From assembly GCA_902795215.1 (NCBI GenBank), contig CADBKG010000008.1, positions 8,749 to 72,748 of the forward strand: DNA of 64,000 nucleotides. The letters run 5' to 3'. Position numbers and translations under genes: made by a program. This DNA is from an uncultured Erysipelotrichaceae bacterium. Lineage in GTDB: Bacteria; Bacillota_I; Bacilli_A; RF39; UBA660. The notes below the pieces were generated by a model. That model saw nothing but the letters and a program-made list of their open reading frames with translations. It did no database searches and had not been told where the DNA came from. Positions 3 through 62,524 of the stretch are shown here, piece by piece (the first letter of the stretch is position 1; every line of letters starts with the position of its first letter).

Positions 3-740
3 GTAATAATCATATTTATTAATTTTGAAGATGTATTTAAAAAGATTATTCCTAAAAATAAACAAAATGAAAAATACGAGGATTCACCATTAGATTATAC
101 TTGCATTATAAATCTTCCAAAAGAAGAAGAGTTTTTAAGAGCAGAAATACTTGAAAAAACTAAAGCTTTTAATTCTATTAGAGCAGGGAAAAACAAAAAT
201 TTGGAAATTAAGTTAAATAAAAAAGTAGTAGAAGAAAAAGAAATGAAAGCTGCTGAAAAAAAGAAAGTTTTAAAAGAAATTCTTGAATATATTTCTAAAT
301 CTACGAAAAAACCAAAGATAACAAAAAAAGGTGCAATTAAGCTTAAATACCTATATAAACTTACAAATACAATCATATTAACTCCTGCCTATACAGAAGA
401 AGTTATTGATAATCCAACATTTGAAGAACTATATAATTATAGTTTTGATGAAATAGGATTTACAAAAAAAATAAGAGATAAATTATATGAACTACCAGTT
501 TATAATTACATATTGATTTTAACTTATGCTATTATTTACGATAATATTTATTACTTTGATGCTGTTTATAAGATGCTTAAATATAGAATAAAATTGGATG
601 TTAAAGGAGATTTTATAAAAGATAAGCATAAGTGTGATAAGTGTTTAAAACTTATTGAACAAATTATTGATGCATCTGGCAAAAAAGACACTTTTGAGTT
701 AGAAAAAGTAATTGATTTAATAAAATTGCAAAAAATTTAA
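3..740 (+). CDS. hypothetical protein, 5' end outside the window
   Basis: Frame 3 is open from base 3 to TAA 738-740. The ORF-track start at 201 is only the first start-like codon, so the gene probably begins upstream of the window. Lys/Glu-rich, with no motif I recognise. Confidence 0.5.
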   Translation, partial: VIIIFINFEDVFKKIIPKNKQNEKYEDSPLDYTCIINLPKEEEFLRAEILEKTKAFNSIRAGKNKNLEIKLNKKVVEEKEMKAAEKKKVLKEILEYISKSTKKPKITKKGAIKLKYLYKLTNTIILTPAYTEEVIDNPTFEELYNYSFDEIGFTKKIRDKLYELPVYNYILILTYAIIYDNIYYFDAVYKMLKYRIKLDVKGDFIKDKHKCDKCLKLIEQIIDASGKKDTFELEKVIDLIKLQKI

Positions 741-754
741 TGGAGGTGAAGAGT

Positions 755-3700
755 ATGAAAAAAAATAGAAAAATAGTATTATCTATTTCTTCTTTCATAC
801 TCTTTTTATGTGCTTTATTTTTAGCATATAAATTTTTATTACCTTCATCTTATAGTAGAATTACTGTAGGGACTCCCAAATGGAATGGAGAAATTGGATA
901 TGAATTCGGTGGAGGGAATGGAACAAAAGAAAATCCATACGTTATTTCAAACGGAGAAACATTTTCATTCTTTTTAAAAGCATTAAATGATAATCCTGAG
1001 TTATATTCTGATAAAAATTATATATTATCAAGCGATATAGATTTAAATAACAAGGAAATCTCTATAGCTTCTTTTAATGGTGTATTAGATGGTAATGGAC
1101 ATACTATAGGAAATATATATTTAACTAATTCTATTTTTAATAAATTAGATAACGCTAGTATTGTTAATTTAAACTTAGAAAACATTTCTATAAACACAAA
1201 TGATAATAAACCCAGTGTGCTTGCAAGAGAGATTAATAATACTACTATTAGTAGAGTTACTATTATAAAAGCAAATGTAGAAGTTGATAATAGTAATAGC
1301 AAGTCAGGAATACTTGCATCTAATATTACAAATTCTAATATAAATAGAATATATATAAATGGTAATATTGAAACAAATAGTGATTATGGTATGATTTCAA
1401 GTGATGAATCAAATAATACTTTAGATCATATTATTTTAAATGGAAAAATCAATAATGAACAAACAAACAAATTCTTTAATAATTCAAGTAGTGAAAATAA
1501 GAATAGTTATGTTTTAAACGAAGAAAACATTGAAAGTATAATAAATGAACTAAACGAAGATGAAAAAGAAATAATATGGCAAAATTATAATGGGCATTTA
1601 GTATATGAAACTAAAGATTTAGAAGCTATTAAAATTAAAAAAGCTGCGATTCCTAAACGTGTTAGAGGTGCAGCTATTGTAGAACATAATAGTGGAGTAG
1701 AAGGCACTAATGTATATGTTAATGACTTAATCGCTGATTATAATTATTATCAAGGACAAAACTATGTGTATTCACCATCTATTACTGCAACTCCAACAAT
1801 GGAAAACAAAAACATTTATGATGAAACTAATCTAGTGAAAACAGAAGTTGTATATGATGGTGTTACTGGTGGAAAAACTGGAACAATTTCTTTAACAGAA
1901 AATCAAAACAAAATATATTATTACAAATACTATGAAGTAAATGATAATGGTACTAGCGGTGATAATAGTGATGATTATATTTTAATAGAATTATTGGATA
2001 GTCCATTTACGAATAGACCAACAAACTTGGCTTTCCACGGATGGAAAACAGATTATTCTGGTGCATTTGTTTATCTAGATACAGAAGTATATGTAAGATA
2101 TGCTAAAATACCCGTTACATACGATGGGGATAATCCAGAAGATATAAGTATTACATTTAATGCTATATGGGAAGAAGCAACCACTTATACTCTTAATGGA
2201 CGTTCATGGACACAAGCAAATAATAATATTAAAGCGAAGGGTATGGAAGCACTTGAAATAAGGCAGATAGTAAATGGTAATTTGACATTACCTAGTGGTT
2301 ATTTTACATATGCTGGGTATGCAACATTTTATACTAGATTTACGGGTTATGACGTAAATGGTACTTATAGAAGTAATTATAGATGTACAAGTATACTTGG
2401 ATGTGCATATTATAATTCTGCTCAAGGAACAACTTATAATCCTAGTACAACATACTATAAATTAAATGGTCAAGCTGTTGAAGTAACAGAAGCTACTCTT
2501 CTTGCAGATGGTGTATTAAAATATATTCCAAAAGATCAATACACTGATATGACAGGATATTTTATTCAAAAAACTGCTGCAAATGGCACAAGTTTGCAAG
2601 GTTATTATAATTCTTCTGGAACTGCTCTAACCGGAACATGTTCATCAAGTGGTGGATGCTCTAACTATTATATGATTCAAGCTGATGATAATGGTGAACC
2701 AGATATTAATGTAACTTACTATTACATGGTAACAAGAGATACAAATATTCTTGTTATGAATGGAACAATGGATAATTCTTGGACAGATTCTATGACTAAA
2801 CCATTTACTTTAACAAGCGTTCATAATGGCACAGATTATAGAAATTCCAATAATGCCTCATGGGATATAGACTATGCTTATGGTTATGGCGTATATACAT
2901 ATGTTAAAGCGTTCAACGATTTAAATCTTGAAAATCTTAGTATTTCTTCCGGAGAAAATTTATCAAACGATGGTATATCAACAGATACTAATACTACTGA
3001 TTTTTTCTATGGTAATTATAATAATATAAAAATTGGTAGAGGTTTAACAGGAACAACCGGGGATGGTACAAGTTTCATTGGATTTTTAGGCGGTAATAAC
3101 TCATTTGATGATGTTGGTTCAAGTTCTTCTCCTAAAAGATATCGTATGATAATTGAAAGTGGTGTTTATAGAATTGGTGGAGCAACCAACGGTGTTAAAA
3201 GTACAGCACATACTCACTATATAGAAGAAACTACTATACTTGGTTCAGATATAGATAGAGTTAAAAACACTAATAATAAATTAATTATAGGTAATGTTTA
3301 TTCACCTAATTGGAGTGGAACAACTCATTCTAAAGATGATATTACACCTGCATATACAACAATTTATAAAAGTGGAAGCTTTGGTACTAAAAAATATGAT
3401 CATGCCACTGGTGCATATATTGGTGGAAGAGGATATGGTACTATTTATGGCCCTGTGGTCGCAACTGTAGAAGGTGGTTCTTTTTATAACATAGTAGGAG
3501 GACCAGTCCAGCCTAGTACGGATGAACAAAAAAACAAAGTGTTTTTAAATATTAAAGGTGGATCTATCGACAATGTTACTATTGGGGCAGGTACTAATGA
3601 ATCTTATGGTAATAGAATATTAAGTATAACTGGTGGAGAAGTTAATTATAGTGTATTTGGTGGTTCTAATGCATATGATCAAACAAGCGGAACATATGGA

Positions 3701-6700
3701 ATACTAAGAGGAAATTCTTATATATATGTTGGTGGAAATGCCACAATTGGAAGCTCAACAAATGTAAACAACAATAATACACTATGGGGCGCTGAAGCCG
3801 GAAGTTTATTTGGAAATGGAGTTGGTAACTCTGCATCATCTTCAATAGGTTCAAATAATAATGCCTATATAGTAATCGCTGATGAAGCACATATTAGAAG
3901 AAATGTGTATGGTGGTGGAAATTACGGTGCCGTTGGTATTGATACCAGTCAGAATTCTAGTGAAGTAAAAATAAAGATTATTGGTGGAACTGTAGATGGA
4001 AGCGTCTATGGTGGTGGAAACCAAAATGGTGGTGGATCTGACACTATACCTTCTAACACATATATTGAAATGCAGGCTGGACTAGTTAAGGGCTCTGTAT
4101 ATGGTGGATCAAATATAAAGGGTATTGTATATGGTGATTCAAACATAGATATTAAAGGTGGAACTATAAATGGTTCAGTATATGGAGGAGGCCAAGGTGG
4201 ATACGATAATGATAATGCACCTGGTACTTATGTCGCTGGAAGCGTACTTATAAACATTGGTGATACAAACTCTAGTACTTCACCTCAGATTAATACATCT
4301 GTATATGGTGGTAGTGCTTATGGTGCAGTTTGTACTCCTATACATGATCCTACTAAAACAAACGAAACTTTAACTTTAAATATAAATAAAGGTACGGTTG
4401 TTAACTCTGTATTTGGTGGAGGCCAAGGTAGTAGCACATATACTCCAATAGTCGCTTGTGATATAGAAGTAAACATCAATGGTGGAAGTCTTGGAAATAT
4501 TTATGGTGCAAATGATGCCTCTGGAATTCCAAGTGGAGCCCTTGAAGTTAATCTAAATGGTGGTACTGGAAGCAATGTATATGGCGGAGGAAACAACGCC
4601 GGTGCAAATATAACAAATGTTAATTTAAATGGTGGAACATTTAGTGACATATATGGTGGTTCAAACCAAAGTGGGGCAGTTAATACAACGCATGTAACTG
4701 TAAATAGTAATACTGCAACTGCTGTTTATGGTGGAAATAATGCCGGTGGTACAGTCACAAATACAAATGTAGTAATAAACGCTGGTTCAATTCCAAACGT
4801 ATTTGGTGGAGGAAACGCTGCGGAAGTAACTAATTCTTCTGTCATTATAAATGGTGGAACCACAACTAATGTTTATGGCGCAGGAAATAGGGCAGGCGCT
4901 AGTGAAACCCATGTAACAGTAAATTCTGGAACAATAACTAACTTATATGGCGGATCAAACCAAAGTGGTAGTGTAAGTGAAAGTAATGTAACGGTTGGTG
5001 CATTAAATGCAGCGAATAACTTAATAAATATTACAAATCTATATGGTGGAAACAACGCCGGTGGAGTTACTTCTGAAACCAATGTTGCTGTTCATTCAGG
5101 AACTATTGTTAATATATTTGGTGGAGGAAACGAAGCTGTAACTCATTACAATAATGTTGATGTAGATGGTGGAAACATTACAAACGCATTATATGGTGGT
5201 GGAAATAATAGTGCCACTTTAATGGATGTCGCTTTGAATGTTAGCAATGTTACTTTAAATAACCTATATGGTGGAGGAAACCTCGGAGATGTTGAAGGGG
5301 ACGTTGTTGTAAATGTACAAAATACAACAGTTAATGCATCTATTTATGGTGGAGGAAACCAAGCAGATGTATTAGGTGATGTAACTTTGAATATCGGTGG
5401 AACAACAAGTACTACAGGAAGTGTATTTGGTGGAGGGAACCACGGTATGATAGGTGCTAGTGGTGGAAGTTCTACTGTTACAGTAAATATAAAAGGTGCA
5501 AGTGTAACGGGTAATGTTTATGGTGGATGTAATACATCTGTTGTAAATGGTAATACCGTAGTTAATATAGGTGCATCTGCTAATACCAGTTTACCTACAG
5601 GAAATATACTAATAAATGGTACTGTGTTTGGTGGTGGTGAAGCCAATGCTTCAGGATCAGAAAACTATGACTTCTCATTTATAAGTGTTACTAGAGGTAT
5701 CGATATAAATATTGATGGAACAAATTATAATTCATTTGCATTAAATGGAAGTATATTTGGTTCAGGTAATGCATCTAGTTCACAAGGTACATCAAATATA
5801 TATATTAAAAATGTTGGAACAAGAACAAATCCAAATGTAAATATCTCTATCCAAAGAGCGGATAAAGTTACAATGGATAATTCTGTTATTGAATTACTTG
5901 GTGCAACAGATAGAACAAATGAATATAGTAATATCAAATATTCATTTAATAGAATAGGTGAGTTAGTAATTAAAAATAACTCAGTATTACTTCTTCAAAA
6001 AAATGCTAACTTACTTAAAAAATTTACAAGTGCTGTTGATGTAAATGGTACTCAAAAACTTGCAGAAGTAACAATAGATGATAATGGTAACTATACAAGA
6101 AATGTTGATAATAGATTATATAATCTAGCTAATAATAACTTGAATGTTATGAACAGTGAAGACTTATCAGACTATGGTATTGTAAAAGGTATGACCTACT
6201 TTGGAATGTATACAAAATATAGTAATGGTTCTTATCAATATGGAATGTATAAAGATGATGTAGGTAACGGAGATAGCATCGATACAGGTGATGTAATTAT
6301 AGGAAGTTCTTATGTCCTTGGTTCACATATGACTAGTCACGACATAACAAAAGATGGATATTATACAAATTATGCAAATGACGATTATACAAGTGTTCAA
6401 ACCAAATATATAGATCCAACTCCAGAGGATGCTGATTATTATATGTGGCTTATCGGAGCAGGGGCCACTAACTATGATATAGAGTTAACAGCATCTAAAT
6501 ATTCATCTCTTGGTACAAAGGAATTATCAATGCTTGATTTTTCAAAGGGAAATACTATTTTCCATGTATCAGGATTTAACAGTGAAGGTTTATCACCAAA
6601 TATCCAGCTTGTAGATTCAAGTGAAGTACCAAATATTACTAAAGATAAAAATCTTGCCAATAGTAAAATTGGTCTTGCAATGAAATCTGAAACAAGTGAA

Positions 6701-8410
6701 TGGACTAGTTATAATACAACATCATTTACTAGTGAAGATAATGGTTCTTTATATGGTGATACTGAGTATCAAATGGATAATCAAAACCAAGCACCTTCAC
6801 TTATGTTCTATTTATACCATGCTAAAAATATATCACTTGATGAAGATTTAGGAACGGTAGTTGTTTCACTTCAAGCAATGGAACCAAAAAATGAAATAGA
6901 ATATGAAGTAAAACTAATTACAATAACTATAACAATAACAGCGGTTAGTTATACTGATGGAAATGCATACGATGCAAGTATTACTTATGGTAGAAAGTAC
7001 GAAATGCCAAGTACTACTAGTGTAAATATTACAAACAAATCACAATTCACAACATATTTTGGATTATATGGTGAAGCAGAAAGCTTTGAAGCAATGTATG
7101 GGACAGGTGGAACGTACAAGCACGTCCTTACTTCAACTATGGCATTCCCAGAGGGAACTAAAATAACAATGATTGATATAGGCGTTAATGATAAAAATCC
7201 AGAAGAATATTATTATATAGTATCAAATTCAGATTATACTCAAGCAAGCTCAGAAGTACAAACTTCTGGAGAAACATCTATACCTTTATCAAAATTTATA
7301 AAAATGAATAGTCCAGATACGAATAATACATATAGTGATGCTAAGTCTAATCAAGTATATTATGATGATGAAAACAATTATGCATACGAAGAATTCTTAT
7401 TTATTATAGATTTAGAAAACGCTAATATGACTACAACAGAACTTAACAAAAGTATTTCTATGGAACTAAGAAATAATGAAAATAGAACAATAGTTTCTGT
7501 ACTTGGTATTAGACAAGAACAAATGATTTATAATCTATATAATGAACAAAGCAACATAGCACTTGGTGAAACAGTTACTATGCCAAGTGAGTATATCTAT
7601 AATGGACTTAATACAGAAGTAAATTATGAAACAGCAGTTAATTATAGTGAAAATGAAGGTAGACAAACTATTATTGATACAAATTATGAAACAAGTAGTA
7701 TGGGTCTAAATATAAGTTTCTACGATTCAAGTAATACTTTAATATCTTCATCATTACTAGAAGATACAACTATAGAAATAAATGGAACAACATATCATTC
7801 AGATAGTCATGGTGTATTTAGGATAAAACTTGCAGGTAAAGTATCAAATCTATCTAAGAAAATTAACATGCATATAGGTAATACTCTTCCAAAAGGTACT
7901 TACAAAATAGAATATAAATTATTCGCATCAGAAGATGGTCTTTATAGTGATGGTTCTAGAGATACGATAGTTACTAAAAATGTAACATTACTTGGCGCAG
8001 AAAATGCTATTAAAGTAGAAACTGAAAAAGAAGACCAAATAAAAGAAAAAGAAGATACATCTAGAAAAGCATCATATATAATTACTTATGAATCAGAACT
8101 ACAAGAACCTAATATAAGAGTATCTATTAGTAAAAGAAATACTAATGACAAAGATACAACAAATTATACTGAAATAGATCCAAATGAATTATTTACTACA
8201 ACATTTGTTAATCCAGCCGTTAATTCTTTAACGCCAGGAAGTACTCATGAAAAAATGGTTACAACATCTCCAACAGCATCTATTAATGTAAGTTATAACA
8301 TAAAAGATAACGTAGATACAGGAACATATAAGGTTACATTTAGACTCTATAATAAGAACAATTTAATAGATGAAGTAGATAAGTATTTAATTATAAAAAC
8401 CGAGCCATAA
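755..8410 (+). CDS. giant cell-surface beta-helix repeat protein (putative adhesin), N-terminally anchored
   Basis: The ORF runs 740-8410. The better start is ATG 755 (GGAGGTG at 742-748, 6-nt spacer), giving MKKNRKIVLSISSFILFLCALFLAYKF, a basic N-terminus plus a hydrophobic anchor or signal. The central third consists of dozens of degenerate ~20-25 aa units built on (V/I)(Y/F)GGGN...NGG(T/S)(I/V), as in parallel beta-helix or Pmp-like adhesins. No LPXTG or C-terminal anchor was seen. Confidence 0.8.
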   Translation: MKKNRKIVLSISSFILFLCALFLAYKFLLPSSYSRITVGTPKWNGEIGYEFGGGNGTKENPYVISNGETFSFFLKALNDNPELYSDKNYILSSDIDLNNKEISIASFNGVLDGNGHTIGNIYLTNSIFNKLDNASIVNLNLENISINTNDNKPSVLAREINNTTISRVTIIKANVEVDNSNSKSGILASNITNSNINRIYINGNIETNSDYGMISSDESNNTLDHIILNGKINNEQTNKFFNNSSSENKNSYVLNEENIESIINELNEDEKEIIWQNYNGHLVYETKDLEAIKIKKAAIPKRVRGAAIVEHNSGVEGTNVYVNDLIADYNYYQGQNYVYSPSITATPTMENKNIYDETNLVKTEVVYDGVTGGKTGTISLTENQNKIYYYKYYEVNDNGTSGDNSDDYILIELLDSPFTNRPTNLAFHGWKTDYSGAFVYLDTEVYVRYAKIPVTYDGDNPEDISITFNAIWEEATTYTLNGRSWTQANNNIKAKGMEALEIRQIVNGNLTLPSGYFTYAGYATFYTRFTGYDVNGTYRSNYRCTSILGCAYYNSAQGTTYNPSTTYYKLNGQAVEVTEATLLADGVLKYIPKDQYTDMTGYFIQKTAANGTSLQGYYNSSGTALTGTCSSSGGCSNYYMIQADDNGEPDINVTYYYMVTRDTNILVMNGTMDNSWTDSMTKPFTLTSVHNGTDYRNSNNASWDIDYAYGYGVYTYVKAFNDLNLENLSISSGENLSNDGISTDTNTTDFFYGNYNNIKIGRGLTGTTGDGTSFIGFLGGNNSFDDVGSSSSPKRYRMIIESGVYRIGGATNGVKSTAHTHYIEETTILGSDIDRVKNTNNKLIIGNVYSPNWSGTTHSKDDITPAYTTIYKSGSFGTKKYDHATGAYIGGRGYGTIYGPVVATVEGGSFYNIVGGPVQPSTDEQKNKVFLNIKGGSIDNVTIGAGTNESYGNRILSITGGEVNYSVFGGSNAYDQTSGTYGILRGNSYIYVGGNATIGSSTNVNNNNTLWGAEAGSLFGNGVGNSASSSIGSNNNAYIVIADEAHIRRNVYGGGNYGAVGIDTSQNSSEVKIKIIGGTVDGSVYGGGNQNGGGSDTIPSNTYIEMQAGLVKGSVYGGSNIKGIVYGDSNIDIKGGTINGSVYGGGQGGYDNDNAPGTYVAGSVLINIGDTNSSTSPQINTSVYGGSAYGAVCTPIHDPTKTNETLTLNINKGTVVNSVFGGGQGSSTYTPIVACDIEVNINGGSLGNIYGANDASGIPSGALEVNLNGGTGSNVYGGGNNAGANITNVNLNGGTFSDIYGGSNQSGAVNTTHVTVNSNTATAVYGGNNAGGTVTNTNVVINAGSIPNVFGGGNAAEVTNSSVIINGGTTTNVYGAGNRAGASETHVTVNSGTITNLYGGSNQSGSVSESNVTVGALNAANNLINITNLYGGNNAGGVTSETNVAVHSGTIVNIFGGGNEAVTHYNNVDVDGGNITNALYGGGNNSATLMDVALNVSNVTLNNLYGGGNLGDVEGDVVVNVQNTTVNASIYGGGNQADVLGDVTLNIGGTTSTTGSVFGGGNHGMIGASGGSSTVTVNIKGASVTGNVYGGCNTSVVNGNTVVNIGASANTSLPTGNILINGTVFGGGEANASGSENYDFSFISVTRGIDINIDGTNYNSFALNGSIFGSGNASSSQGTSNIYIKNVGTRTNPNVNISIQRADKVTMDNSVIELLGATDRTNEYSNIKYSFNRIGELVIKNNSVLLLQKNANLLKKFTSAVDVNGTQKLAEVTIDDNGNYTRNVDNRLYNLANNNLNVMNSEDLSDYGIVKGMTYFGMYTKYSNGSYQYGMYKDDVGNGDSIDTGDVIIGSSYVLGSHMTSHDITKDGYYTNYANDDYTSVQTKYIDPTPEDADYYMWLIGAGATNYDIELTASKYSSLGTKELSMLDFSKGNTIFHVSGFNSEGLSPNIQLVDSSEVPNITKDKNLANSKIGLAMKSETSEWTSYNTTSFTSEDNGSLYGDTEYQMDNQNQAPSLMFYLYHAKNISLDEDLGTVVVSLQAMEPKNEIEYEVKLITITITITAVSYTDGNAYDASITYGRKYEMPSTTSVNITNKSQFTTYFGLYGEAESFEAMYGTGGTYKHVLTSTMAFPEGTKITMIDIGVNDKNPEEYYYIVSNSDYTQASSEVQTSGETSIPLSKFIKMNSPDTNNTYSDAKSNQVYYDDENNYAYEEFLFIIDLENANMTTTELNKSISMELRNNENRTIVSVLGIRQEQMIYNLYNEQSNIALGETVTMPSEYIYNGLNTEVNYETAVNYSENEGRQTIIDTNYETSSMGLNISFYDSSNTLISSSLLEDTTIEINGTTYHSDSHGVFRIKLAGKVSNLSKKINMHIGNTLPKGTYKIEYKLFASEDGLYSDGSRDTIVTKNVTLLGAENAIKVETEKEDQIKEKEDTSRKASYIITYESELQEPNIRVSISKRNTNDKDTTNYTEIDPNELFTTTFVNPAVNSLTPGSTHEKMVTTSPTASINVSYNIKDNVDTGTYKVTFRLYNKNNLIDEVDKYLIIKTEP
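3470..5790 (+). repeat. intragenic degenerate tandem repeats encoding YGGGN-type beta-helix coils (approximate bounds)
   Basis: tatggtggtggaaa / tttggtggaggaaa (YGGGN/FGGGN) recurs every ~60-75 nt. Protein examples are NVYGGGNYGA, SVYGGGNQNG, NLYGGSNQSG and NIFGGGNEAV. Confidence 0.8.
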
Positions 8411-8468: not shown

Positions 8469-9041
8469 ATGAAAACAGTTGGTAAAATTTTAATTGGTAT
8501 ACTTGAAGCAATAATTGTATTATATGCAATATTTGTAATAGTACTAATGCTTTCATATAATGAATTTGGTTATACAGAAGTAGGAGACCATACATTTGTA
8601 TCTATAAATGACCAAAACATAACAGAATTATCGGATTTTAAAGAAGGTGACTTAATCAGCATTAAATCAAAGACTTATAATGAAATTAATGCTGGAGATG
8701 AAGTATATTATTATGCCACTTTAAATGATGAATATATTATTGTAAAAGATAAATTACTAGAAAAAGATGGTAATAATAGAGAAGCAGTTTATAACTTTGA
8801 ACACAATGACAGTATGGTTACATATGATAGAATAATTGGTACATTTGAAAAGAATTACGAAGGTAAAGGAAAGATATATGATATACTTTTATCAACTGTT
8901 GGATTCTTATTACTTGTAATCTTACCAGTATTAGTAATATTCATATATCAAGTTTATAAATTCGTATTACTTGTTAAAGAAGATAAAGAGTTAACTAAAC
9001 AAGAAGCTTCTCCAATAAAACTAAAACCAAGAGAAAAATAG
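8469..9041 (+). CDS. SipW-like pseudo-peptidase membrane protein (catalytic residues absent)
   Basis: RBS agagagg precedes ATG 8469. The protein has N- and C-terminal TM helices. It aligns by eye with the SipW at 61418 (FGYTEVGDHTF vs FGLYTIISGSMEP; EKDGNN vs TKGDNN; RIIGTF vs NFVGKV), but SGSMEP Ser and THRV His are replaced. A paralog lies at 56325-56903. Confidence 0.55.
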   Translation: MKTVGKILIGILEAIIVLYAIFVIVLMLSYNEFGYTEVGDHTFVSINDQNITELSDFKEGDLISIKSKTYNEINAGDEVYYYATLNDEYIIVKDKLLEKDGNNREAVYNFEHNDSMVTYDRIIGTFEKNYEGKGKIYDILLSTVGFLLLVILPVLVIFIYQVYKFVLLVKEDKELTKQEASPIKLKPREK

Positions 9042-56277: not shown

Positions 56278-56324
56278 AATTTGTAAACCTAATATAAATG
56301 TTATATTTTATTTAGGTGGTTACA

Positions 56325-56903
56325 GTGAAACTAGCAAAATATTCAAATGCATTAACAATCTTTTTTCTAGTAGTCGCTTTGTTCGGTGGCTTTATTATGG
56401 TCAATAAAAACGAATATGGTTTTTGTAATGTTGGAAGGGCTACGTATTTTTTAAGCGATAGTAAATTATATAAAATAGTAGAATCAAATCTAGCTAGAGG
56501 AGATAAAGTGTATTATTATGATAAAGATGACTTAGGGTATAAAATAGATAGTGACAAATTAACATATGCCAGTGAAGATGTATTTGTTGTAAAATCTAAA
56601 CCTGATGAAGCTATTGATGGAAGAAGAATGATTGGAAAATTATCTTATAAGAGTACTATTTTGGGAAGTGTTTTAAATATATTTTCATATAAAATAAATT
56701 TTATGATACTAGTAATATTACCTTTAATATTGTTATTAACATATAGGTTTTATAATGTTATTAGTCTTCCAGGGAATAAAGTTCCTGTTAAACTTGGAAA
56801 TATGGCATATGAACTACCTGCACTTAAGAGAAAACAAATTACTAGAAGAAGTGCAAATACAATTGCTTTTAAAAGAGCTCCTATTAAAAAAAGATATTCA
56901 TAA
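56325..56903 (+). CDS. SipW-like pseudo-peptidase membrane protein, paralog of 8469-9041
   Basis: AGGTGG at 56314-56319 favours GTG 56325. It shares NEYGFCNVGRATYF, GDKVYYY, RMIGKL and the C-terminal TM FMILVILPLILLL with the 8469 protein. It has no SGSMEP Ser and no THR(V/I) His. Confidence 0.5.
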   Translation: MKLAKYSNALTIFFLVVALFGGFIMVNKNEYGFCNVGRATYFLSDSKLYKIVESNLARGDKVYYYDKDDLGYKIDSDKLTYASEDVFVVKSKPDEAIDGRRMIGKLSYKSTILGSVLNIFSYKINFMILVILPLILLLTYRFYNVISLPGNKVPVKLGNMAYELPALKRKQITRRSANTIAFKRAPIKKRYS

Positions 56904-57627: not shown

Positions 57628-57707
57628 AGTCTCTTTTGTTTTGCACAAGTATTTCATATATTTTTCACATTTGTGTTATAATCTTTTATAGAGAAAGGGA
57701 GATACTC

Positions 57708-58370
57708 ATGAAAATATTAATAGTAGATGATGAGGAGCTAATTAGAAACGTTATAAAAGAATATGCTGAACTTGAGAAATTTGAAATCGATGAAGCAGGG
57801 GATGGGTATGAAGCAATAGAAAAATGCAAAAATAATAATTATAATCTAGTAATTATGGATATAATGATGCCAAAACTTGACGGTTATCAAGCTGTAAAAG
57901 AAATCAAAAAAGAGAAAAACATGCCTGTAATTATGCTTTCTGCTCGTGGTGAAGAATATGACAAATTACTTGGGTTTGATTTAGGTATAGATGATTACGT
58001 TCAAAAACCATTTAGTCCAAAAGAATTAATAGCGAGAATAAAAGCTATATTAAAAAGATATAATAATGATAGCGAAAAAATGGTTTACGGAAAACTATCT
58101 ATTGATAAAGCCGGTAGAGAAGTTTATGTTAATGATAAACAAGTGGTATTAACTTTAAAAGAATATGAGATGCTTGTATACCTTGTTGATAATAAAAATA
58201 TAGCTGTTTCAAGAGAAAAATTATTAAATTCAATATGGGGTTATGATTTTTACGGAGATGATAGAACAGTAGATACCCATATTAAAACTCTTAGAAGTAA
58301 ACTAGGTGAATGCAAAGATTATATAGTTACACTTAGAGGGGTAGGTTACAAATTTGAGTACAAGAATTAA
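57708..58370 (+). CDS. OmpR/PhoB-family response regulator
   Basis: The start is ATG 57708 after AAGGGAG. The receiver domain has ILIVDDE, MDIMMPKLDG and KPF. The winged-helix output domain has LTLKEYEML...RTVDTHIKTLRSKL...TLRGVGYKF. Confidence 0.92.
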   Translation: MKILIVDDEELIRNVIKEYAELEKFEIDEAGDGYEAIEKCKNNNYNLVIMDIMMPKLDGYQAVKEIKKEKNMPVIMLSARGEEYDKLLGFDLGIDDYVQKPFSPKELIARIKAILKRYNNDSEKMVYGKLSIDKAGREVYVNDKQVVLTLKEYEMLVYLVDNKNIAVSREKLLNSIWGYDFYGDDRTVDTHIKTLRSKLGECKDYIVTLRGVGYKFEYKN

Positions 58371-59733
58371 TACTAACTCCTTTATGAAGAAGACACTTGT
58401 TTTATTAGTTGTTTTTTCTTCGATTATAGCGCTTTTATATATATCGCAAGCAAGACTGCTCAATTGGTATTATGAGAGATATAAAATAAATAGTGTAGAA
58501 GAAATAGCAACTAAAATCAAAAAACAAGGAGAAAATGAAGAATATTTAGAACAAATTAGTGAAAGTTCTGATTTGTGTATAGAAGTATATGATGGAGAAG
58601 AACATGAAATATATAATGAACATGCAAAGGGATGTATGTTTCGTGGTCCAAATAACAAAATAACTAACCTTATGGAAGATATGTATAAAAGCAAAAAAAA
58701 TGAAGAATTTTATACAATTATTAATCCAGAATTTAAATCAAAGTCTTTACTTTATGGAATAAGATTATCAGAAGGTAAATATGTATATATAAATGGGCAA
58801 CTAGAAAGCTTAGATCAGGCTTCAAGACTTATAACAAAACAAAGTAGTTATGTAATAGTTGTAATATTTATTTTATCTATTCTTATTGCAATATTTATAT
58901 CCAATTCAATAACAAAACCAATTAGAGAAATAACTGCTAAAGCAAAGAGAATGGGTGAAGGAGATTTAAAAGTAGAATTTGAGCATAACTCAATAAAAGA
59001 AATAGACGATTTATCAGAAACACTAAACTATGCTAAAGAAGAAATGATAAAAACTGACGATTATAGAAGAGATTTGATGGCAAATGTCGGTCATGATTTA
59101 AAAACGCCTTTAACATTAATTAAGAGTTATGCTGAAATGGTAAGGGATATTTCTTATAAAGATGAAGAAAAAAGAAATAAACACTTAAATGTTATAATTA
59201 ATGAAACCGATAGATTAAATGTGCTTGTTAATGATATTTTGACGTTATCCAAACTAGAAGTATCTGAAAGTCCACTTGAAATAAAGGAATATGATTTATG
59301 TAAACAAATAAATGATATTATTGGAAAGTTTGAGATTTTGGAATTAACGGAGAATTATCATTTTGTTACAAATATGCCCAAAAAAGCTATGGTAAAAGCA
59401 GATGAAAATAAGATTAATCAAGTTATATATAATTTAATCAATAATGCAATCAATTATACAGGTGAAGATTTAACTATAAATATAAACATTAAAGAAGAAA
59501 AAAACGGATATAAAATAGAGATTATTGATAGTGGAAAAGGCATTGATAAAAAAGATATTAAACATGTATGGAATAGATATTATAAAACGGATAAAAAGCA
59601 TAGAAGAAACAAAGTAGGAACAGGGTTAGGTTTATCTATTGTTAAAGAGATACTTAATAAACATGATTTTAAATATGGAGTTAAAAGTGAAATAGGAAAA
59701 GGAACAAATTTCTGGTTTATAGCAAAAAAATAA
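58354..59733 (+). CDS. sensor histidine kinase (2 TM, HAMP, HisKA, HATPase)
   Basis: H-box ANVGHDLKTPLT, N-box NLINNAINYT and G-boxes DSGKGI/GTGLGLSI. The start is uncertain (TTG 58354 overlapping the RR stop, or ATG 58384). Confidence 0.9.
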   Translation: MSTRINTNSFMKKTLVLLVVFSSIIALLYISQARLLNWYYERYKINSVEEIATKIKKQGENEEYLEQISESSDLCIEVYDGEEHEIYNEHAKGCMFRGPNNKITNLMEDMYKSKKNEEFYTIINPEFKSKSLLYGIRLSEGKYVYINGQLESLDQASRLITKQSSYVIVVIFILSILIAIFISNSITKPIREITAKAKRMGEGDLKVEFEHNSIKEIDDLSETLNYAKEEMIKTDDYRRDLMANVGHDLKTPLTLIKSYAEMVRDISYKDEEKRNKHLNVIINETDRLNVLVNDILTLSKLEVSESPLEIKEYDLCKQINDIIGKFEILELTENYHFVTNMPKKAMVKADENKINQVIYNLINNAINYTGEDLTININIKEEKNGYKIEIIDSGKGIDKKDIKHVWNRYYKTDKKHRRNKVGTGLGLSIVKEILNKHDFKYGVKSEIGKGTNFWFIAKK

Positions 59734-59736
59734 AAT

Positions 59737-59758
59737 ATTTCACATAAATTTCACATAA
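59737..59758 (+). promoter_or_regulatory. perfect tandem 11-nt direct repeat (candidate response-regulator box)
   Basis: ATTTCACATAA ATTTCACATAA, with one helical turn of periodicity. It lies between the HK stop and the TasA-like gene promoter. Confidence 0.35.
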
Positions 59759-59810
59759 CTTTAGTATAAGTAAATTGAATATGCAAGCAAGTTATCCTTC
59801 TCTATCTTGT

Positions 59811-59838
59811 AAGCACATTCATTTTTTTGTGCTTTTTT
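59811..59838 (+). terminator. intrinsic terminator after the two-component operon
   Basis: AAGCACA-(10 nt loop)-TGTGCTT plus a T-run. Confidence 0.6.
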
Positions 59839-59849
59839 CATATTTTTTG

Positions 59850-59878
59850 TTGCATTTAAAAATGTTTTTTGTTATCAT
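59850..59878 (+). promoter_or_regulatory. promoter of TasA-like gene 1
   Basis: TTGCAT (59850-59855), a 17-nt spacer, then TATCAT (59873-59878). The same TTGCAT -35 hexamer recurs at 60601. Confidence 0.55.
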
Positions 59879-59901
59879 TATTATAGTAAGGAGGACTTAA
59901 T

Positions 59902-60561
59902 ATGGAAGGAGAAAATCAAAAAAAACAAAAGAATAATAATACTGTTTTAGTAATTATTGCTGTTGCGACATTACTTGTAGCATTAGTAGGTGCAACATTT
60001 GCGTACTTTACTGCGACTGTTAATAACGAATCTGCACAAAGTATCGAAGTTACTACTGCAAGTCCAGCAACTTTGGAGTATAGATCTACAGATACTCTTG
60101 CATTAACAAATGCATCTCCAGGACCTGAAGCAACTAAAACCATGACATTCACTGTTAAAAATCCGCTTACAACAACTGATGGACAAAGTAATACAAAAAG
60201 TTACAAATATGACTTATATTTAACAAGTCTAACAGATGACTTTTCTGATGCTAGTGGTGGTCTAGAACAATTAATGCTTTCTGTTACTCAAACTACAGAT
60301 GGTGATTCTACTTTAAAAATTGGTAATACACCATTAACAATTAATTTAACAAATGGTACACAAGTTTTAGCAGCTACTAGATCAACTGATGCAACAATCC
60401 ATGGAAAAGATGTTGTTATTGAACAAGAAATTGCTCCTGGTGAAACACATACTTATAGTGCAACAATTGAGTTCAGAGATACTGACTCTAACCAAAATAG
60501 CAACCAAAATAAGACATATTCAGGTTATTTTGAAATTGCAAATGCTCAAACAGTTAATTAA
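59902..60561 (+). CDS. SipW-dependent-type signal peptide protein, TasA/camelysin-like matrix protein 1
   Basis: AAGGAGG RBS. The N-terminus ...VLVIIAVATLLVALVGATFAYFTATV carries the (G)(A/G)TFAYF(T/S) motif typical of SipW substrates. The mature part is Thr/Ser/Asn-rich and looks like a beta-protein. Confidence 0.8.
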   Translation: MEGENQKKQKNNNTVLVIIAVATLLVALVGATFAYFTATVNNESAQSIEVTTASPATLEYRSTDTLALTNASPGPEATKTMTFTVKNPLTTTDGQSNTKSYKYDLYLTSLTDDFSDASGGLEQLMLSVTQTTDGDSTLKIGNTPLTINLTNGTQVLAATRSTDATIHGKDVVIEQEIAPGETHTYSATIEFRDTDSNQNSNQNKTYSGYFEIANAQTVN

Positions 60562-60574
60562 TAATATATAAATA

Positions 60575-60598
60575 AAAGAAGAGAAATCTTCTTTTTTT
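60575..60598 (+). terminator. intrinsic terminator
   Basis: AAGAAGA-gaaa-TCTTCTT plus a T-run. Confidence 0.75.
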
Positions 60599-60600
60599 AG

Positions 60601-60629
60601 TTGCATTTTAGTTATGGTTTTGATATACT
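60601..60629 (+). promoter_or_regulatory. promoter of TasA-like gene 2
   Basis: TTGCAT (60601-60606), a 17-nt spacer, then TGaTATACT, an extended -10 (60621-60629). Confidence 0.6.
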
Positions 60630-60654
60630 TTTAATAGAGTAAAGGAGAATAGGC

Positions 60655-61329
60655 ATGGAAGAAAAAGAAGTAAAACAAACTAATGAAGTTAGCGAAGAGG
60701 AAAAAGATAAAAAGAAAAATAGAGCAATATTATTGATAATTGGTATTGCTACTGTATTAATTGCTTTAATAGGTGCAACATTTGCATTCTTTACTGCTCA
60801 AATTAATAATGTTAATGGAGATCAAAGTGTAATGGTAACAACTGCAACAGTTGAAGGTGTTATATATACATCAACTGATCCAATTGTATTAAATCATGCG
60901 ATGCCTGGAGATAGTGATGAAGGTACATTTACTATAGAAAATCCAAATACAACTGCAAGTGCTAAATATACAATTACATTTGTTCCTGATTTTGATAACT
61001 TTGTGCTTACTCCAACAGAACCAGGAGATACTAAAGAAGATATGGCTGGACAATTAATCTTAACAGTTACTGGCCCTGGAATAGTTGGACAATTTAGACA
61101 TGATTTCACTGATGGAGAGAACGCTACACCTCAACCAGTAGCGGAAGATATAGAAATACCTGCCAACGCAATGGGTAGCGCAGGTCACACATATACAGCT
61201 AATATCGAGTTTGTTGAAATAGATAAAAACCAAGATGCTAACAAATCTACTAATGAAAGATCTGTAAGTTTCTTTGGACACTTCGAAGTAACTCAAAAAG
61301 TTACAGCTCAAACAAGTAGTAATCCATAA
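60655..61329 (+). CDS. SipW-dependent-type signal peptide protein, TasA/camelysin-like matrix protein 2
   Basis: AAGGAGA RBS. The N-terminus is ...AILLIIGIATVLIALIGATFAFFTAQI. It is paralogous to 59902-60561 (shared blocks include TTA..., LNHAMPGD/LTNASPGP, FTIENPNT/FTVKNPLT, YTANIEF/YSATIEF). Confidence 0.8.
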   Translation: MEEKEVKQTNEVSEEEKDKKKNRAILLIIGIATVLIALIGATFAFFTAQINNVNGDQSVMVTTATVEGVIYTSTDPIVLNHAMPGDSDEGTFTIENPNTTASAKYTITFVPDFDNFVLTPTEPGDTKEDMAGQLILTVTGPGIVGQFRHDFTDGENATPQPVAEDIEIPANAMGSAGHTYTANIEFVEIDKNQDANKSTNERSVSFFGHFEVTQKVTAQTSSNP

Positions 61330-61356
61330 GATGACAACAATGTCATCTTTTTTTTG
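61328..61356 (+). terminator. intrinsic terminator
   Basis: AAGATGACA-acaa-TGTCATCTT plus T8. Confidence 0.8.
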
Positions 61357-61417
61357 TTTTAGTACATTTTTTTGGCAATATATCTTGTTTTTTTTGCTAT
61401 TTTAATATATACTTATT

Positions 61418-62524
61418 ATGGTGAACACTATGAATAATAAAGGGGCGAGTTCTAGTTTTCTAACAAGTACTAGAATTAAGATAAATCGTATAAAAGATTC
61501 TTATATTTATAGACTCATTTCAAAGGTTCTATCTGTAATTGGAACGCTTGTATTAATATGCCTTATAATTATTGGTTCACTTATGTTTTACTTTAATGCC
61601 AAAGCCAAAGCTGCTGAAAAGCGTGGAATTAGTTATGTTCCTCCATTTGGATTATATACTATTATCAGTGGTAGTATGGAACCTAGTATTCACGTTTACG
61701 ATGTAGTTGTTTCAGTAAATGAAAAAGATTTGAGTAAGATAAAAGTGGGAGATATTATAACGTTTATTTCTACTTGGGATGTAAATTATGGTTTAACCGT
61801 TACACATAGAGTCGCAAGTGTGTCTAAGAATTCTTATGGGGAATACCAATTTACCACTAAGGGTGATAATAACCAAGATCCAGATGGTGCGGTTGTTACA
61901 CAACAAAATTTTGTAGGTAAGGTAGTTGCGAGACTGCCATATTTAGGTAGACTTCAATTCTTCTTAGCAACTAAGATGGGTTGGTTTATGGTAGTATTTA
62001 TTCCAGCACTTGGAGTAATAATTTATGATATGTTTAAAATATTTAAATTAATTGTATTAAAGAGACAAATCGATAATGTTGAAACATACGATGATCTTAA
62101 TACATTGCCAGCATATAATGAAGATGAATCTATTAATCAAACTGTTGAGGAGAGCATAACACCAGAAGAAAACAAGATAGAGGAAAACCATAAACAAAAA
62201 ATTATACCTATAAGACATAATCAAGAACAAGAAGAAATAAAAACAACAGTTAATTCAGACGAAAACATTAATATAATATATTCACCAAGCGTAGAACCTG
62301 CTAAAGAAGAAACTAATAATTCAATTGTAAATGATGTTCCAGAAGAAATTGTGCCAGTTGTTGAAAACAAACCAGTTATTAACAATGAAAATCCACTAGC
62401 AAGTTTAACGCCGGTTTCAACCAATAGTAATGAAAAAGAAACGGATGAAATAGAGTTGCCAGTAATGAATGGTAATGTAATGGCACCTAATGGAAGAAAA
62501 CCACTAGAAAGAAGAAAAAAATAA
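61418..62524 (+). CDS. sipW: signal peptidase I, SipW (archaeal/ER) type, with ~170-aa acidic C-terminal tail
   Basis: The catalytic Ser box is ISGSMEPSI and the His box is LTVTHRV (His instead of the Lys of P-type SPases). TKGDNNQDPD is present. Two TM helices flank the catalytic domain. A long Glu/Asn/Pro-rich tail ends in RKPLERRKK. Confidence 0.9.
   Translation: MVNTMNNKGASSSFLTSTRIKINRIKDSYIYRLISKVLSVIGTLVLICLIIIGSLMFYFNAKAKAAEKRGISYVPPFGLYTIISGSMEPSIHVYDVVVSVNEKDLSKIKVGDIITFISTWDVNYGLTVTHRVASVSKNSYGEYQFTTKGDNNQDPDGAVVTQQNFVGKVVARLPYLGRLQFFLATKMGWFMVVFIPALGVIIYDMFKIFKLIVLKRQIDNVETYDDLNTLPAYNEDESINQTVEESITPEENKIEENHKQKIIPIRHNQEQEEIKTTVNSDENINIIYSPSVEPAKEETNNSIVNDVPEEIVPVVENKPVINNENPLASLTPVSTNSNEKETDEIELPVMNGNVMAPNGRKPLERRKK

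Follow-up and report, generated by a model that had tools for sequence, protein, structure and literature searches.

A probable SipW-dependent fiber cassette related to TasA and camelysin in an uncultured, walled gut bacterium of the class Bacilli with a reduced genome

Does a group of three adjoining genes from an uncultured gut bacterium encode a secreted surface fiber that is processed by its own signal peptidase, or do these genes serve some other purpose? To answer this question, we analyzed a 64-kb stretch of DNA, hereafter called the window, which corresponds to positions 8749-72748 of contig C8 (C8:8749-72748) in a 1.34-Mb assembly that is 93% complete. A reading made from the letters alone (the sequence-only reading) had proposed that positions 59850-62524 of the window hold two TasA/camelysin-like proteins, each with the kind of signal that is cut by SipW, followed by SipW itself. 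The three open reading frames lie on the forward strand, as do the other parts of the locus described below, at the positions given in that reading, i.e., 59902-60561 (219 amino acids [aa]), 60655-61329 (224 aa), and 61418-62524 (368 aa). We named the first two fibA and fibB and refer to the third as sipW; the related loci that we compared (n = 79) are designated L001, etc. FibA and FibB are paralogs, with 34% identity (E = 4e-28). We conclude, with moderate confidence, that the locus is a SipW-dependent fiber cassette whose subunits belong to the TasA/camelysin superfamily and whose host is an uncultured gut bacterium of the class Bacilli, with a cell wall and a reduced genome.

We began with the N-termini, where the two proteins most resemble known SipW substrates. 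The fibA gene (59902-60561), the sipW-distal of the two TasA-like subunit genes, is preceded by a strong AAGGAGG ribosome-binding site and encodes a protein starting with MEGENQKKQKNNNTVLVIIAVATLLVALVGATFAYFTA, for which cleavage is predicted after A34 (GATFA↓YFTA, the arrow marking the cut). The fibB gene (60655-61329), of the sipW-proximal class, encodes an N-terminus that includes KDKKKNRAILLIIGIATVLIALIGATFAFFTA, with predicted cleavage at GATFA↓FFTA. Thus, the lysine-rich start, the hydrophobic stretch, and the GATFA(Y/F)FTA motif that had been claimed for both proteins can be read directly from their translations, and GATFA(Y/F)F is invariant across 48 homologs. FibA narrowly passed the model for SipW-cognate signals (TIGR04088; 19.9 bits against a cut-off of 19) and, with sipW nearby, belongs to that class; FibB gave no match to TIGR04088 above the cut-off, though the same motif (IGATFAFFTA) is present. 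In TasA, as reported in PMC10269814, an aromatic residue at P2' makes cleavage by LepB inefficient and creates the need for a dedicated SipW. The invariant aromatic P2' residue of the fib family matches this feature.

Cleavage at this site would nevertheless be wrong if the N-terminus were kept, either as a signal anchor or as a retained pilin-like helix, yielding a membrane-anchored layer or a filament with a helical core. The hydrophobic segment is indeed the most conserved part of the family (89% pairwise identity in the signal region, against 54% in the first ~20 mature residues and 38% in the remaining mature protein), and residues 9-32 were modeled as one long helix. However, the signals of true TasA/CalY proteins, which are cleaved, are likewise over-conserved (75% against 42% in the mature part), and we therefore rejected a retained pilin-like helix as the leading explanation. 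Moreover, in a profile-profile alignment (hhalign), the T-F-A↓(Y/F)-F of the family aligns with the TasA site T-W-A↓A-F, the mature chain of TasA in structure 8AUR beginning at A28. Nor do the proteins qualify as type IV pilins or class III signals: no prepilin-peptidase motif is present, the residue preceding the hydrophobic stretch is N in FibA with no conserved G/A at this place in the family, and the family has no acidic residue at +5 equivalent to Glu5. Finally, a peptidase whose active site faces outward is encoded next door in 44 of the 79 loci. We thus regard an uncleaved N-terminus as improbable.

The neighboring peptidase is of the type that such signals call for. Its peptidase part (61418-62044) consists of a membrane helix, an extracellular catalytic domain, and a second membrane helix, the hydrophobic segments starting at about residues 30-45 and 183-191. 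The gene product scored 101.2 bits with TIGR02228 (cut-off 51.85) and only 15.6 bits with the bacterial-type signal peptidase model, and the SGSMEP and THRV boxes are present, all of which agrees with the earlier assignment to the endoplasmic reticulum/archaeal-type (Ser-His) signal peptidases I. It reached only 89.1 of the 190 bits required by NF046067, the equivalog model for Bacillus SipW, indicating the same type of enzyme but not an ortholog of Bacillus SipW. An invariant GGTGA, a likely ribosome-binding site, lies 5 nucleotides (nt) ahead of the second ATG, at 61430, and both L002 and L007 have TTG as their first codon, so that ATG 61430 is more likely to be the true start of sipW.

We then asked whether the arrangement is conserved. 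Among the 79 related loci, many of those without an adjoining sipW being cut by contig ends, sipW directly follows one to three fib genes in 44, a regulator gene lies upstream of the fib genes in 28, and a kinase gene is syntenic in 30, with the pair of the two directly upstream in about 30. Within the window's order, the fib family profile was matched in 110 of 201 genomes and in 52 of 98 genera. To examine the relationship between the two subunits, we built a maximum-likelihood tree of 62 subunits labeled as sipW-proximal or sipW-distal. The label changes only 5 times on this tree, compared with 20 times in shuffles (0 of 500 shuffles were as low), and one large clade divides into two groups of 15, one purely proximal and the other purely distal, whose members come from the same loci. 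With a support of 100/100, FibB falls in a clade with the proximal genes of L001 and L002. These results indicate two old subunit classes in fixed order, which fits the earlier idea of a major and a minor subunit, since proximal and distal copies fall into separate old clades.

Are these subunits related to TasA and camelysin, as the sequence-only reading had it? The Pfam family Peptidase_M73 (PF12389) was matched at E ≤ 0.01 by 24 of 48 family members (best 4.8e-7), and the NCBIfam TasA model was matched by one. Because the shared signal could carry much of the PF12389 score, we stripped the signal peptides from the test set, whereupon 5 of 10 mature sequences still matched PF12389 in its C-terminal third (E from 5e-4 to 0.05). 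When 250 genomes of the class were searched for true TasA with PF12389, the matches were weak only and mostly to the signal-peptide part, and we therefore took B. subtilis TasA as query instead; the sequence used is identical to 8AUR across residues 28-261, and its homologs supplied a comparison set of 32 true TasA/CalY proteins. Alignment of the fib family with this TasA family by hhalign spanned 161 columns (E = 6.9e-5) and matched three motifs in the same order, namely the signal, L.N..PG....F.x.N, and F.e....QN.xQG.s.

We also predicted single-chain structures of FibA with AlphaFold2 (AF2). The models show a nine-strand, jelly-roll-like β-sandwich, with a predicted local distance difference test (pLDDT) score of 78 for the full-length protein and 82 for the mature part. 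In both monomer models, mature residues 1-17 are disordered despite their conservation. A conserved yet disordered N-terminus is what would be expected of a segment that pairs as a strand with another subunit, and we take this feature of the models as a hint of such pairing.

Several results weigh against this reading of the locus. FibA scored 19.7 bits with PF12389 (E = 8e-4), under the gathering threshold of 22.5, and FibB gave no match to that model; the shared signal peptide contributes part of the sequence similarity; the hhalign probability is low, at only 63%; and the family profile found no matches among PDB sequences. Likewise, a Foldseek search of the PDB with full-length and mature models retrieved weak, generic jelly-roll matches only (4-1BBL, picornavirus capsid proteins, mu-adaptin, and lambda gpJ; E ≥ 5e-3, template modeling [TM] score ≤ 0.39), and neither TasA (5OF1/8AUR) nor AbpA appeared in the top 50. 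Direct sequence search of the PDB with FibA was uninformative, giving weak matches to STIV A223-like jelly rolls (E = 0.004-0.02). Two further points of this kind come from the genome and from the region ahead of fibA. The genome encodes seven SipW-type peptidases above the cut-off, besides five fib-like genes and one LepB-type peptidase, so the adjacent SipW need not be the sole peptidase for the Fib proteins; and a terminator-like hairpin stands between a putative regulator-binding box and the fibA promoter (both described below), so control of fibA by the neighboring regulator would be indirect or by read-through. The proposed kinship with TasA/camelysin therefore holds as a distant relation seen with profiles, but neither at the Pfam threshold nor by fold retrieval with Foldseek. 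Our own reading is that the Fib subunits would represent a smaller and divergent offshoot within the TasA superfamily, for which the basis is sequence profiles and gene context and not the fold search.

The name of the Pfam family brings up the notion that the Fib proteins are surface proteases of the camelysin type rather than structural subunits, and they share a conserved GETHTY motif that contains both Glu and His. Yet, the sequences contain neither HExxH nor any other recognized metalloprotease motif, no protease family other than PF12389 was matched, and TasA, the structurally characterized member, is a fiber subunit (PMC9674648). We consider a protease function highly improbable.

A more serious question is whether FibA and FibB, even as SipW-processed members of the TasA superfamily, assemble at all. 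They could remain monomeric, as a wall-associated coat, an adhesin, or a binding protein, and the longer paralogs found in relatives would then be distinct surface proteins with a common module for export and attachment. In several relatives (G313, G282, G358, G401, G308, and others), the ~200-aa fib module stands at the N-terminus of proteins of ~400-1000 aa, and some genomes of ~1.0-1.3 Mb carry 15 or more copies, a pattern that suits a shared module for export or anchoring; the failure to obtain a specific structural match to a fiber subunit also fits monomers. On the other hand, the first ~20 mature residues exceed the remaining mature sequence in conservation but are modeled as disordered, two subunit classes conserved in position lie in tandem, and the characterized relatives with such a signal and gene context, TasA, CalY, and AbpA, all form fibers (PMC9674648, PMC4292775, PMC9245690). 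We judge monomeric surface proteins to be unlikely overall, while allowing them a real chance. As a separate observation, those multi-copy relatives devote a very large part of their coding capacity to a single surface-protein family.

Together, the evidence describes a real and conserved cassette, which would depend on SipW and most likely encodes a two-subunit surface fiber under adjacent two-component control, and we propose the following course of events. FibA and FibB would be exported by Sec, and the adjacent peptidase would cut after GATFA to release the free N-terminus (Y/F)FTA...QS(V/I)xVTTA. By analogy with TasA and AbpA, this freed N-terminus would act as a donor strand that inserts into the β-sandwich of the next subunit, giving rise to an extracellular fiber. 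FibA, of the sipW-distal class, would be the bulk subunit, and FibB, of the proximal class, a specialized minor subunit that initiates or caps the fiber. Each subunit gene would form its own transcription unit, while sipW would be cotranscribed with a downstream repeat protein of the calcium-binding type, a possible third SipW substrate or anchor. The OmpR-type system encoded upstream would probably control the cassette through a repeat, resembling a Pho box, that occurs at its own promoter and again after the kinase gene.

In support of separate transcription units, the promoter-like site and the terminator hairpin claimed for each fiber gene were found, and the pattern is conserved in relatives. 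The fibA promoter (59850-59878) reads TTGCAT-17-TATCAT with TG ahead of the -10 element, and an intrinsic terminator follows the gene (60569-60599; -8.7 kcal/mol, z-score -2.4, then a U-run). The fibB promoter (60601-60629) reads TTGCAT-17-TATACT, identical to the site upstream of the fibB ortholog in L001, and its terminator (61328-61359) has a 9-bp stem followed by a T-run (-10 kcal/mol, z-score -3.8). Upstream of the fib genes of relatives, a TTGCAT/TTGCAA -35 element and a TGn-extended -10 element are conserved, and the subunit genes in L001 and L002 also carry 3' terminator hairpins. Ahead of sipW lies a promoter-like site (61385-61413; TTGTTT-17-TATACT), and the block CTTGTTTTTTTT...TATACTTAT upstream of sipW is conserved in the window, L001, L002, L007, and L018.

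The sequence-only reading had also placed the locus between an OmpR/histidine kinase pair and a repeat protein, and both flanks were borne out, the former by its domains and the latter by its DxDxDG units. The response regulator (57708-58370; Response_reg 111 bits, Trans_reg_C 90 bits) is of the OmpR/PhoB type and is the only regulator of such architecture and size found with the query used on the 1.34-Mb genome. The overlapping kinase gene (58354-59733) encodes a membrane histidine kinase with HAMP, HisKA, and HATPase_c domains, and all domains of the pair score well over their cut-offs, which makes it a two-component system of the OmpR/PhoB family. Its promoter (57653-57682), the best promoter match of the region, carries a direct repeat, TTCATATATTTTTCACA, over the -35 position (57653-57669; two half-sites with an 11-nt period), after which come 7 nt and a TATAAT that has TG ahead of it. 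The same repeat stands upstream of the regulator gene in relatives, exactly in 9 of 27 and near-exactly in most others.

A second box (59739-59767) begins 5 nt past the kinase stop codon, where the repeat TTCACATAAATTTCACA (59739-59755) is followed by 6 nt and TAGTAT in the same geometry as at the operon promoter. The tandem 11-nt repeat that had been recorded separately at this place is thus one copy of a conserved box, with the consensus T(T/A)CA(C/T)A-N5-T(T/A)CA(C/T)A. When both strands of 1.54 Mb of related loci were searched for this pattern, we counted 31 occurrences, 18 of them directly after a kinase stop codon and 9 at the -35 position of the regulator-kinase promoter. Of 28 related intergenic regions between kinase and fib genes, 17 have the box immediately past the kinase stop codon; its density there, 3.2 per kb, is ~160 times the overall value of 0.02 per kb. 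In Pho-box promoters of the OmpR/PhoB family, the place of the -35 element is taken by a pair of direct half-sites, spaced at an 11-bp period and ending 6-7 nt before the -10 element. The boxes in the window share that half-site geometry, but their half-site, T(T/A)CA(C/T)A, differs in sequence from that of the E. coli Pho box, and we treat them as a putative operator. The only other copy in the genome is a 27-nt box at C7:6685-6711 (26 of 27 nt identical, E = 2.8e-6), followed ~150 nt on by CTTATCCTTCTC and a GC-rich terminator; this order of box, CUUAUCCUUCUC, and terminator stands upstream of a second SipW-linked cluster in the genome. Further downstream come an open reading frame of 78 aa and a P-loop ATPase of 585 aa, and a few kb from the C7 box lies the cluster itself, in which a membrane-fused SipW accompanies a small protein bearing a VGFAAYS signal.

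Between the second box and the fibA promoter we noticed a candidate for a short regulator-dependent RNA or leader (59768-59845). It comprises a hairpin with the apical loop UUAUCCUUCUCUAU and then the terminator-like hairpin mentioned above (AAGCACA...TGTGCUU followed by a U-run), with single-sequence folds at z-scores of about -2 to -3. A 22-nt core, CAAGTTATCCTTCTCTATCTTG, is identical in L001, where it forms a hairpin (-16.5 kcal/mol, z-score -4.9), and a structured segment ending in a T-run is always present between the second box and the fib promoter. In more distant loci (L038, L039, L042-L044, L050, L052, L053, L061, L064, L067-L069, and L076-L078), the counterpart is a conserved segment of ~80-110 nt that follows the kinase gene and regulator box and precedes the first of the fib genes; it forms a purine/pyrimidine stem around an invariant AUAUAAACUCAAACUCACA. 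Its arms vary by lineage yet stay complementary (GGGAAAA/TTTTCCC, GAAAAAGGAAA/TTTCCTTTTTC, or GGGAAG/CTTCCC), closing a loop that holds the near-invariant ATATAAACTCAAACTCACA.

Single-sequence folds are what supports this RNA structure. RNAalifold found no consensus structure on a MAFFT alignment of the intergenic RNA, because the stem arms are out of register, and Rfam contained no match for either the window RNA or the segment of the distant loci. Within the loci, a search for targets complementary to the conserved ACUCAAACUCACA loop gave none at ≤2 mismatches. The AAGGAGG site and codons 2-4 of fibA (GAAGGAGAA; 59902-59925) are complementary to part of the CU-rich loop (UCCUUC), which may be a matter of chance, since purine-rich sites of this kind are common. 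Small open reading frames within the intergenic RNA were dropped as candidates, their sequences showing no conservation. A regulator-dependent small RNA or leader is thus a lead, not a result, suggested by sequence comparison. We put forward only tentatively, and with some doubt, the idea that such an RNA joins the two-component system to the fiber genes, with a Pho-box-like promoter after the kinase gene driving a short structured RNA that has a CU-rich, anti-Shine-Dalgarno-like loop and a terminator before the fiber promoters. If true, this would be a small regulon tuning SipW-dependent surface fibers across a whole order of genome-reduced gut Bacilli.

The long C-terminal tail of SipW (62045-62524) had been singled out as a Glu/Asn/Pro-rich cytoplasmic extension of ~170 aa with a potential regulatory role. 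The composition is as described (acidic and rich in Asn and Pro, with 15.7% Glu, 13.8% Asn, 8.2% Pro, and a net charge of -15), but the tail is 159 aa long after the second helix; the positive-inside rule would place it in the cytoplasm. Among 43 orthologs adjoining fib genes, tail length ranges from 12 to 283 aa, the closest orthologs having tails of 222, 114, 25, and 20 aa. The tails cannot be aligned even between close orthologs, save for a membrane-proximal KIFKL..K and a short I(E/Q)LPVM that is shared with L001. A conserved domain was therefore rejected, as neither length nor sequence is conserved, and for the same reason a conserved or specific regulatory role is unlikely; from its sequence, the tail looks like a fast-evolving disordered extension. 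Near its end there is a possible short linear motif (IELPVMNGN in the window, IQLPVMKAN in L001).

Downstream, a gene for a repeat protein of the DxDxDG (thrombospondin type 3-like) kind starts 22 nt after sipW, with no hairpin or terminator between them, and runs from 62547 to the end of the window (64000) and beyond (872 aa in the genome). The protein has 36 DxDxDG-like units, eight CDLNC pairs, and a VGGYAF after its membrane helix, and homologs lie beside fib or sipW in 7 of the 79 loci. In L071, L048, and L072, the homologs have N-termini of the form ...GATYSYY or ...GLTYSYY, resembling a SipW-type signal. Judging by these motifs, SipW may have a third substrate in the repeat protein, which could alternatively serve as an anchor. 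The idea that the C-terminal domain of this protein is TasA-like was dropped, as the domain has no similarity to the fib profile.

The SipW-type genes of this genome are spread over contigs C1, C7, C8, C10, and C13. A second SipW-type peptidase (386 aa), whose helical, Lys-rich cytoplasmic tail is quite unlike that of the first, starts at C8:8328, just ahead of the window, and ends at position 740 of the window; a 2556-aa protein (740-8410) follows at once, giving two separate peptidase-plus-substrate units in the window. Two small paralogous membrane proteins, at 8469-9041 (190 aa) and 56316-56903 (195 aa; mutual E = 1e-4), have the SipW layout of helix, outside domain, and helix without the catalytic Ser and His boxes. 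The former matches the SipW catalytic domain at E = 1e-4 and the latter weakly (E = 0.1), and from this resemblance both may be inactive SipW-like partners. Elsewhere, two of the SipW-type proteins carry a large polytopic membrane domain as a fusion (C7:9674-10801 and C8:86313-87455), and a short SipW on C13 adjoins a camelysin-like protein that is more canonical and bears the signal GGTIAYFTS.

What kind of organism carries the cassette? Relatives of fibA were found only in uncultured gut and rumen genomes, under labels such as Bacilli, Tenericutes, Erysipelotrichaceae, and 'Firmicutes bacterium CAG:582'. The genome encodes MurG (301 bits), and we thus take the host to be a walled monoderm with a reduced genome; a wall-less, mycoplasma-like host was rejected on the same ground. 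Some labels of relatives (Muribaculaceae, Phocaeicola) are evidently wrong. Public records that hold the cassette under the titles 'uncultured Muribaculaceae' or 'Phocaeicola vulgatus' include L001, L009-L011, L017, L020, L049, and others. Where these loci encode FtsZ, it is 83-86% identical to that of the window, and they have the same regulator-kinase pair. This gene content, within a low-GC cassette of the Bacilli type, implies that the records are mislabeled or the contigs mis-binned.

We lastly compared the cassette with known systems. Like the tapA-sipW-tasA locus of B. subtilis, it encodes an endoplasmic reticulum/archaeal-type peptidase beside more than one substrate, a conserved signal ending in G-x-T-aromatic-A↓x-F, and a mature domain, modeled as a β-sandwich, with the L.N..PG....F.x.N and QNxxQG motifs. 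It differs in the order of the genes (subunit-subunit-sipW, with no TapA homolog and a promoter and terminator for each subunit), in its link to an OmpR-type two-component system in place of SinR/SinI, in the acidic tail of SipW, and in the predicted cotranscription of a DxDxDG protein with sipW. In comparison with B. subtilis TasA (5OF1, 8AUR), similarity is confined to the profile-profile level, the mature subunits are smaller (~185 against 234 aa), and the models lack the helical insertions of TasA. The claimed contrast with the Bacillus operon stands as far as separate transcription units are concerned, but these are not unique, since in B. cereus, which likewise has two TasA-like paralogs beside sipW, calY is monocistronic (PMC4292775). 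There, however, sipW comes first and is cotranscribed with tasA, while in the window both subunit genes precede sipW and look monocistronic; the Fib sequences are only distantly related to TasA and CalY of B. cereus.

AbpA of the archaeon Pyrobaculum calidifontis (7UEG) offers a parallel, as a small jelly-roll protein whose kinship with TasA emerges by sensitive comparison only and which, once its signal peptide is gone, assembles by inserting its N-terminal strand as a donor strand (PMC9245690). In contrast to the Fib proteins, AbpA has no dedicated peptidase gene nearby, and we obtained no sequence or Foldseek match to it. The SipW-linked TasA-like clusters of uncultured gut Firmicutes, among them the McrBC-linked pilus-assembly clusters named CoCoPALM (Bell et al., eLife 2024, PMC11090510), are alike in that a SipW-type peptidase stands beside several exported β-sandwich paralogs in small-genome gut Bacilli, with inactive-looking SipW-like paralogs in the same genome. 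The cassette does not belong with CoCoPALM, though: no McrB-like NxD GTPase or McrC-like partner is encoded at 55.4-64 kb, nor among the genes after the other pair of SipW and giant protein (8.5-21.7 kb). Neither a GTPase of the McrB/McrC kind nor a coiled-coil partner stands in or next to the cassette, whose conserved partner is the two-component system.

The cassette is not new in principle, similar loci having been described in Bacillus and archaea. What is new is a divergent family of small subunits, expanded in an unstudied gut order, together with a conserved link to a two-component system that has a recognizable, putative operator and a candidate RNA element. This order consists of uncultured Bacilli with ~1-Mb genomes that are common in animal and human guts and whose cell surface is almost uncharted. 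The presence of the family in more than half of the genomes searched, often in many copies, and the seven SipW-type peptidases of the window's genome suggest that fibers or surface proteins processed by SipW are a main route by which these bacteria attach, with hosts, food particles, and other microbes as suggested targets. Since the cassette is compact and self-contained, bringing together a sensor, a regulator, two subunit classes, a peptidase, and a repeat protein, it makes a practical target for heterologous reconstruction and cryo-EM (cryogenic electron microscopy), and it would extend the TasA/AbpA family of donor-strand fibers to a much smaller and more divergent subunit.

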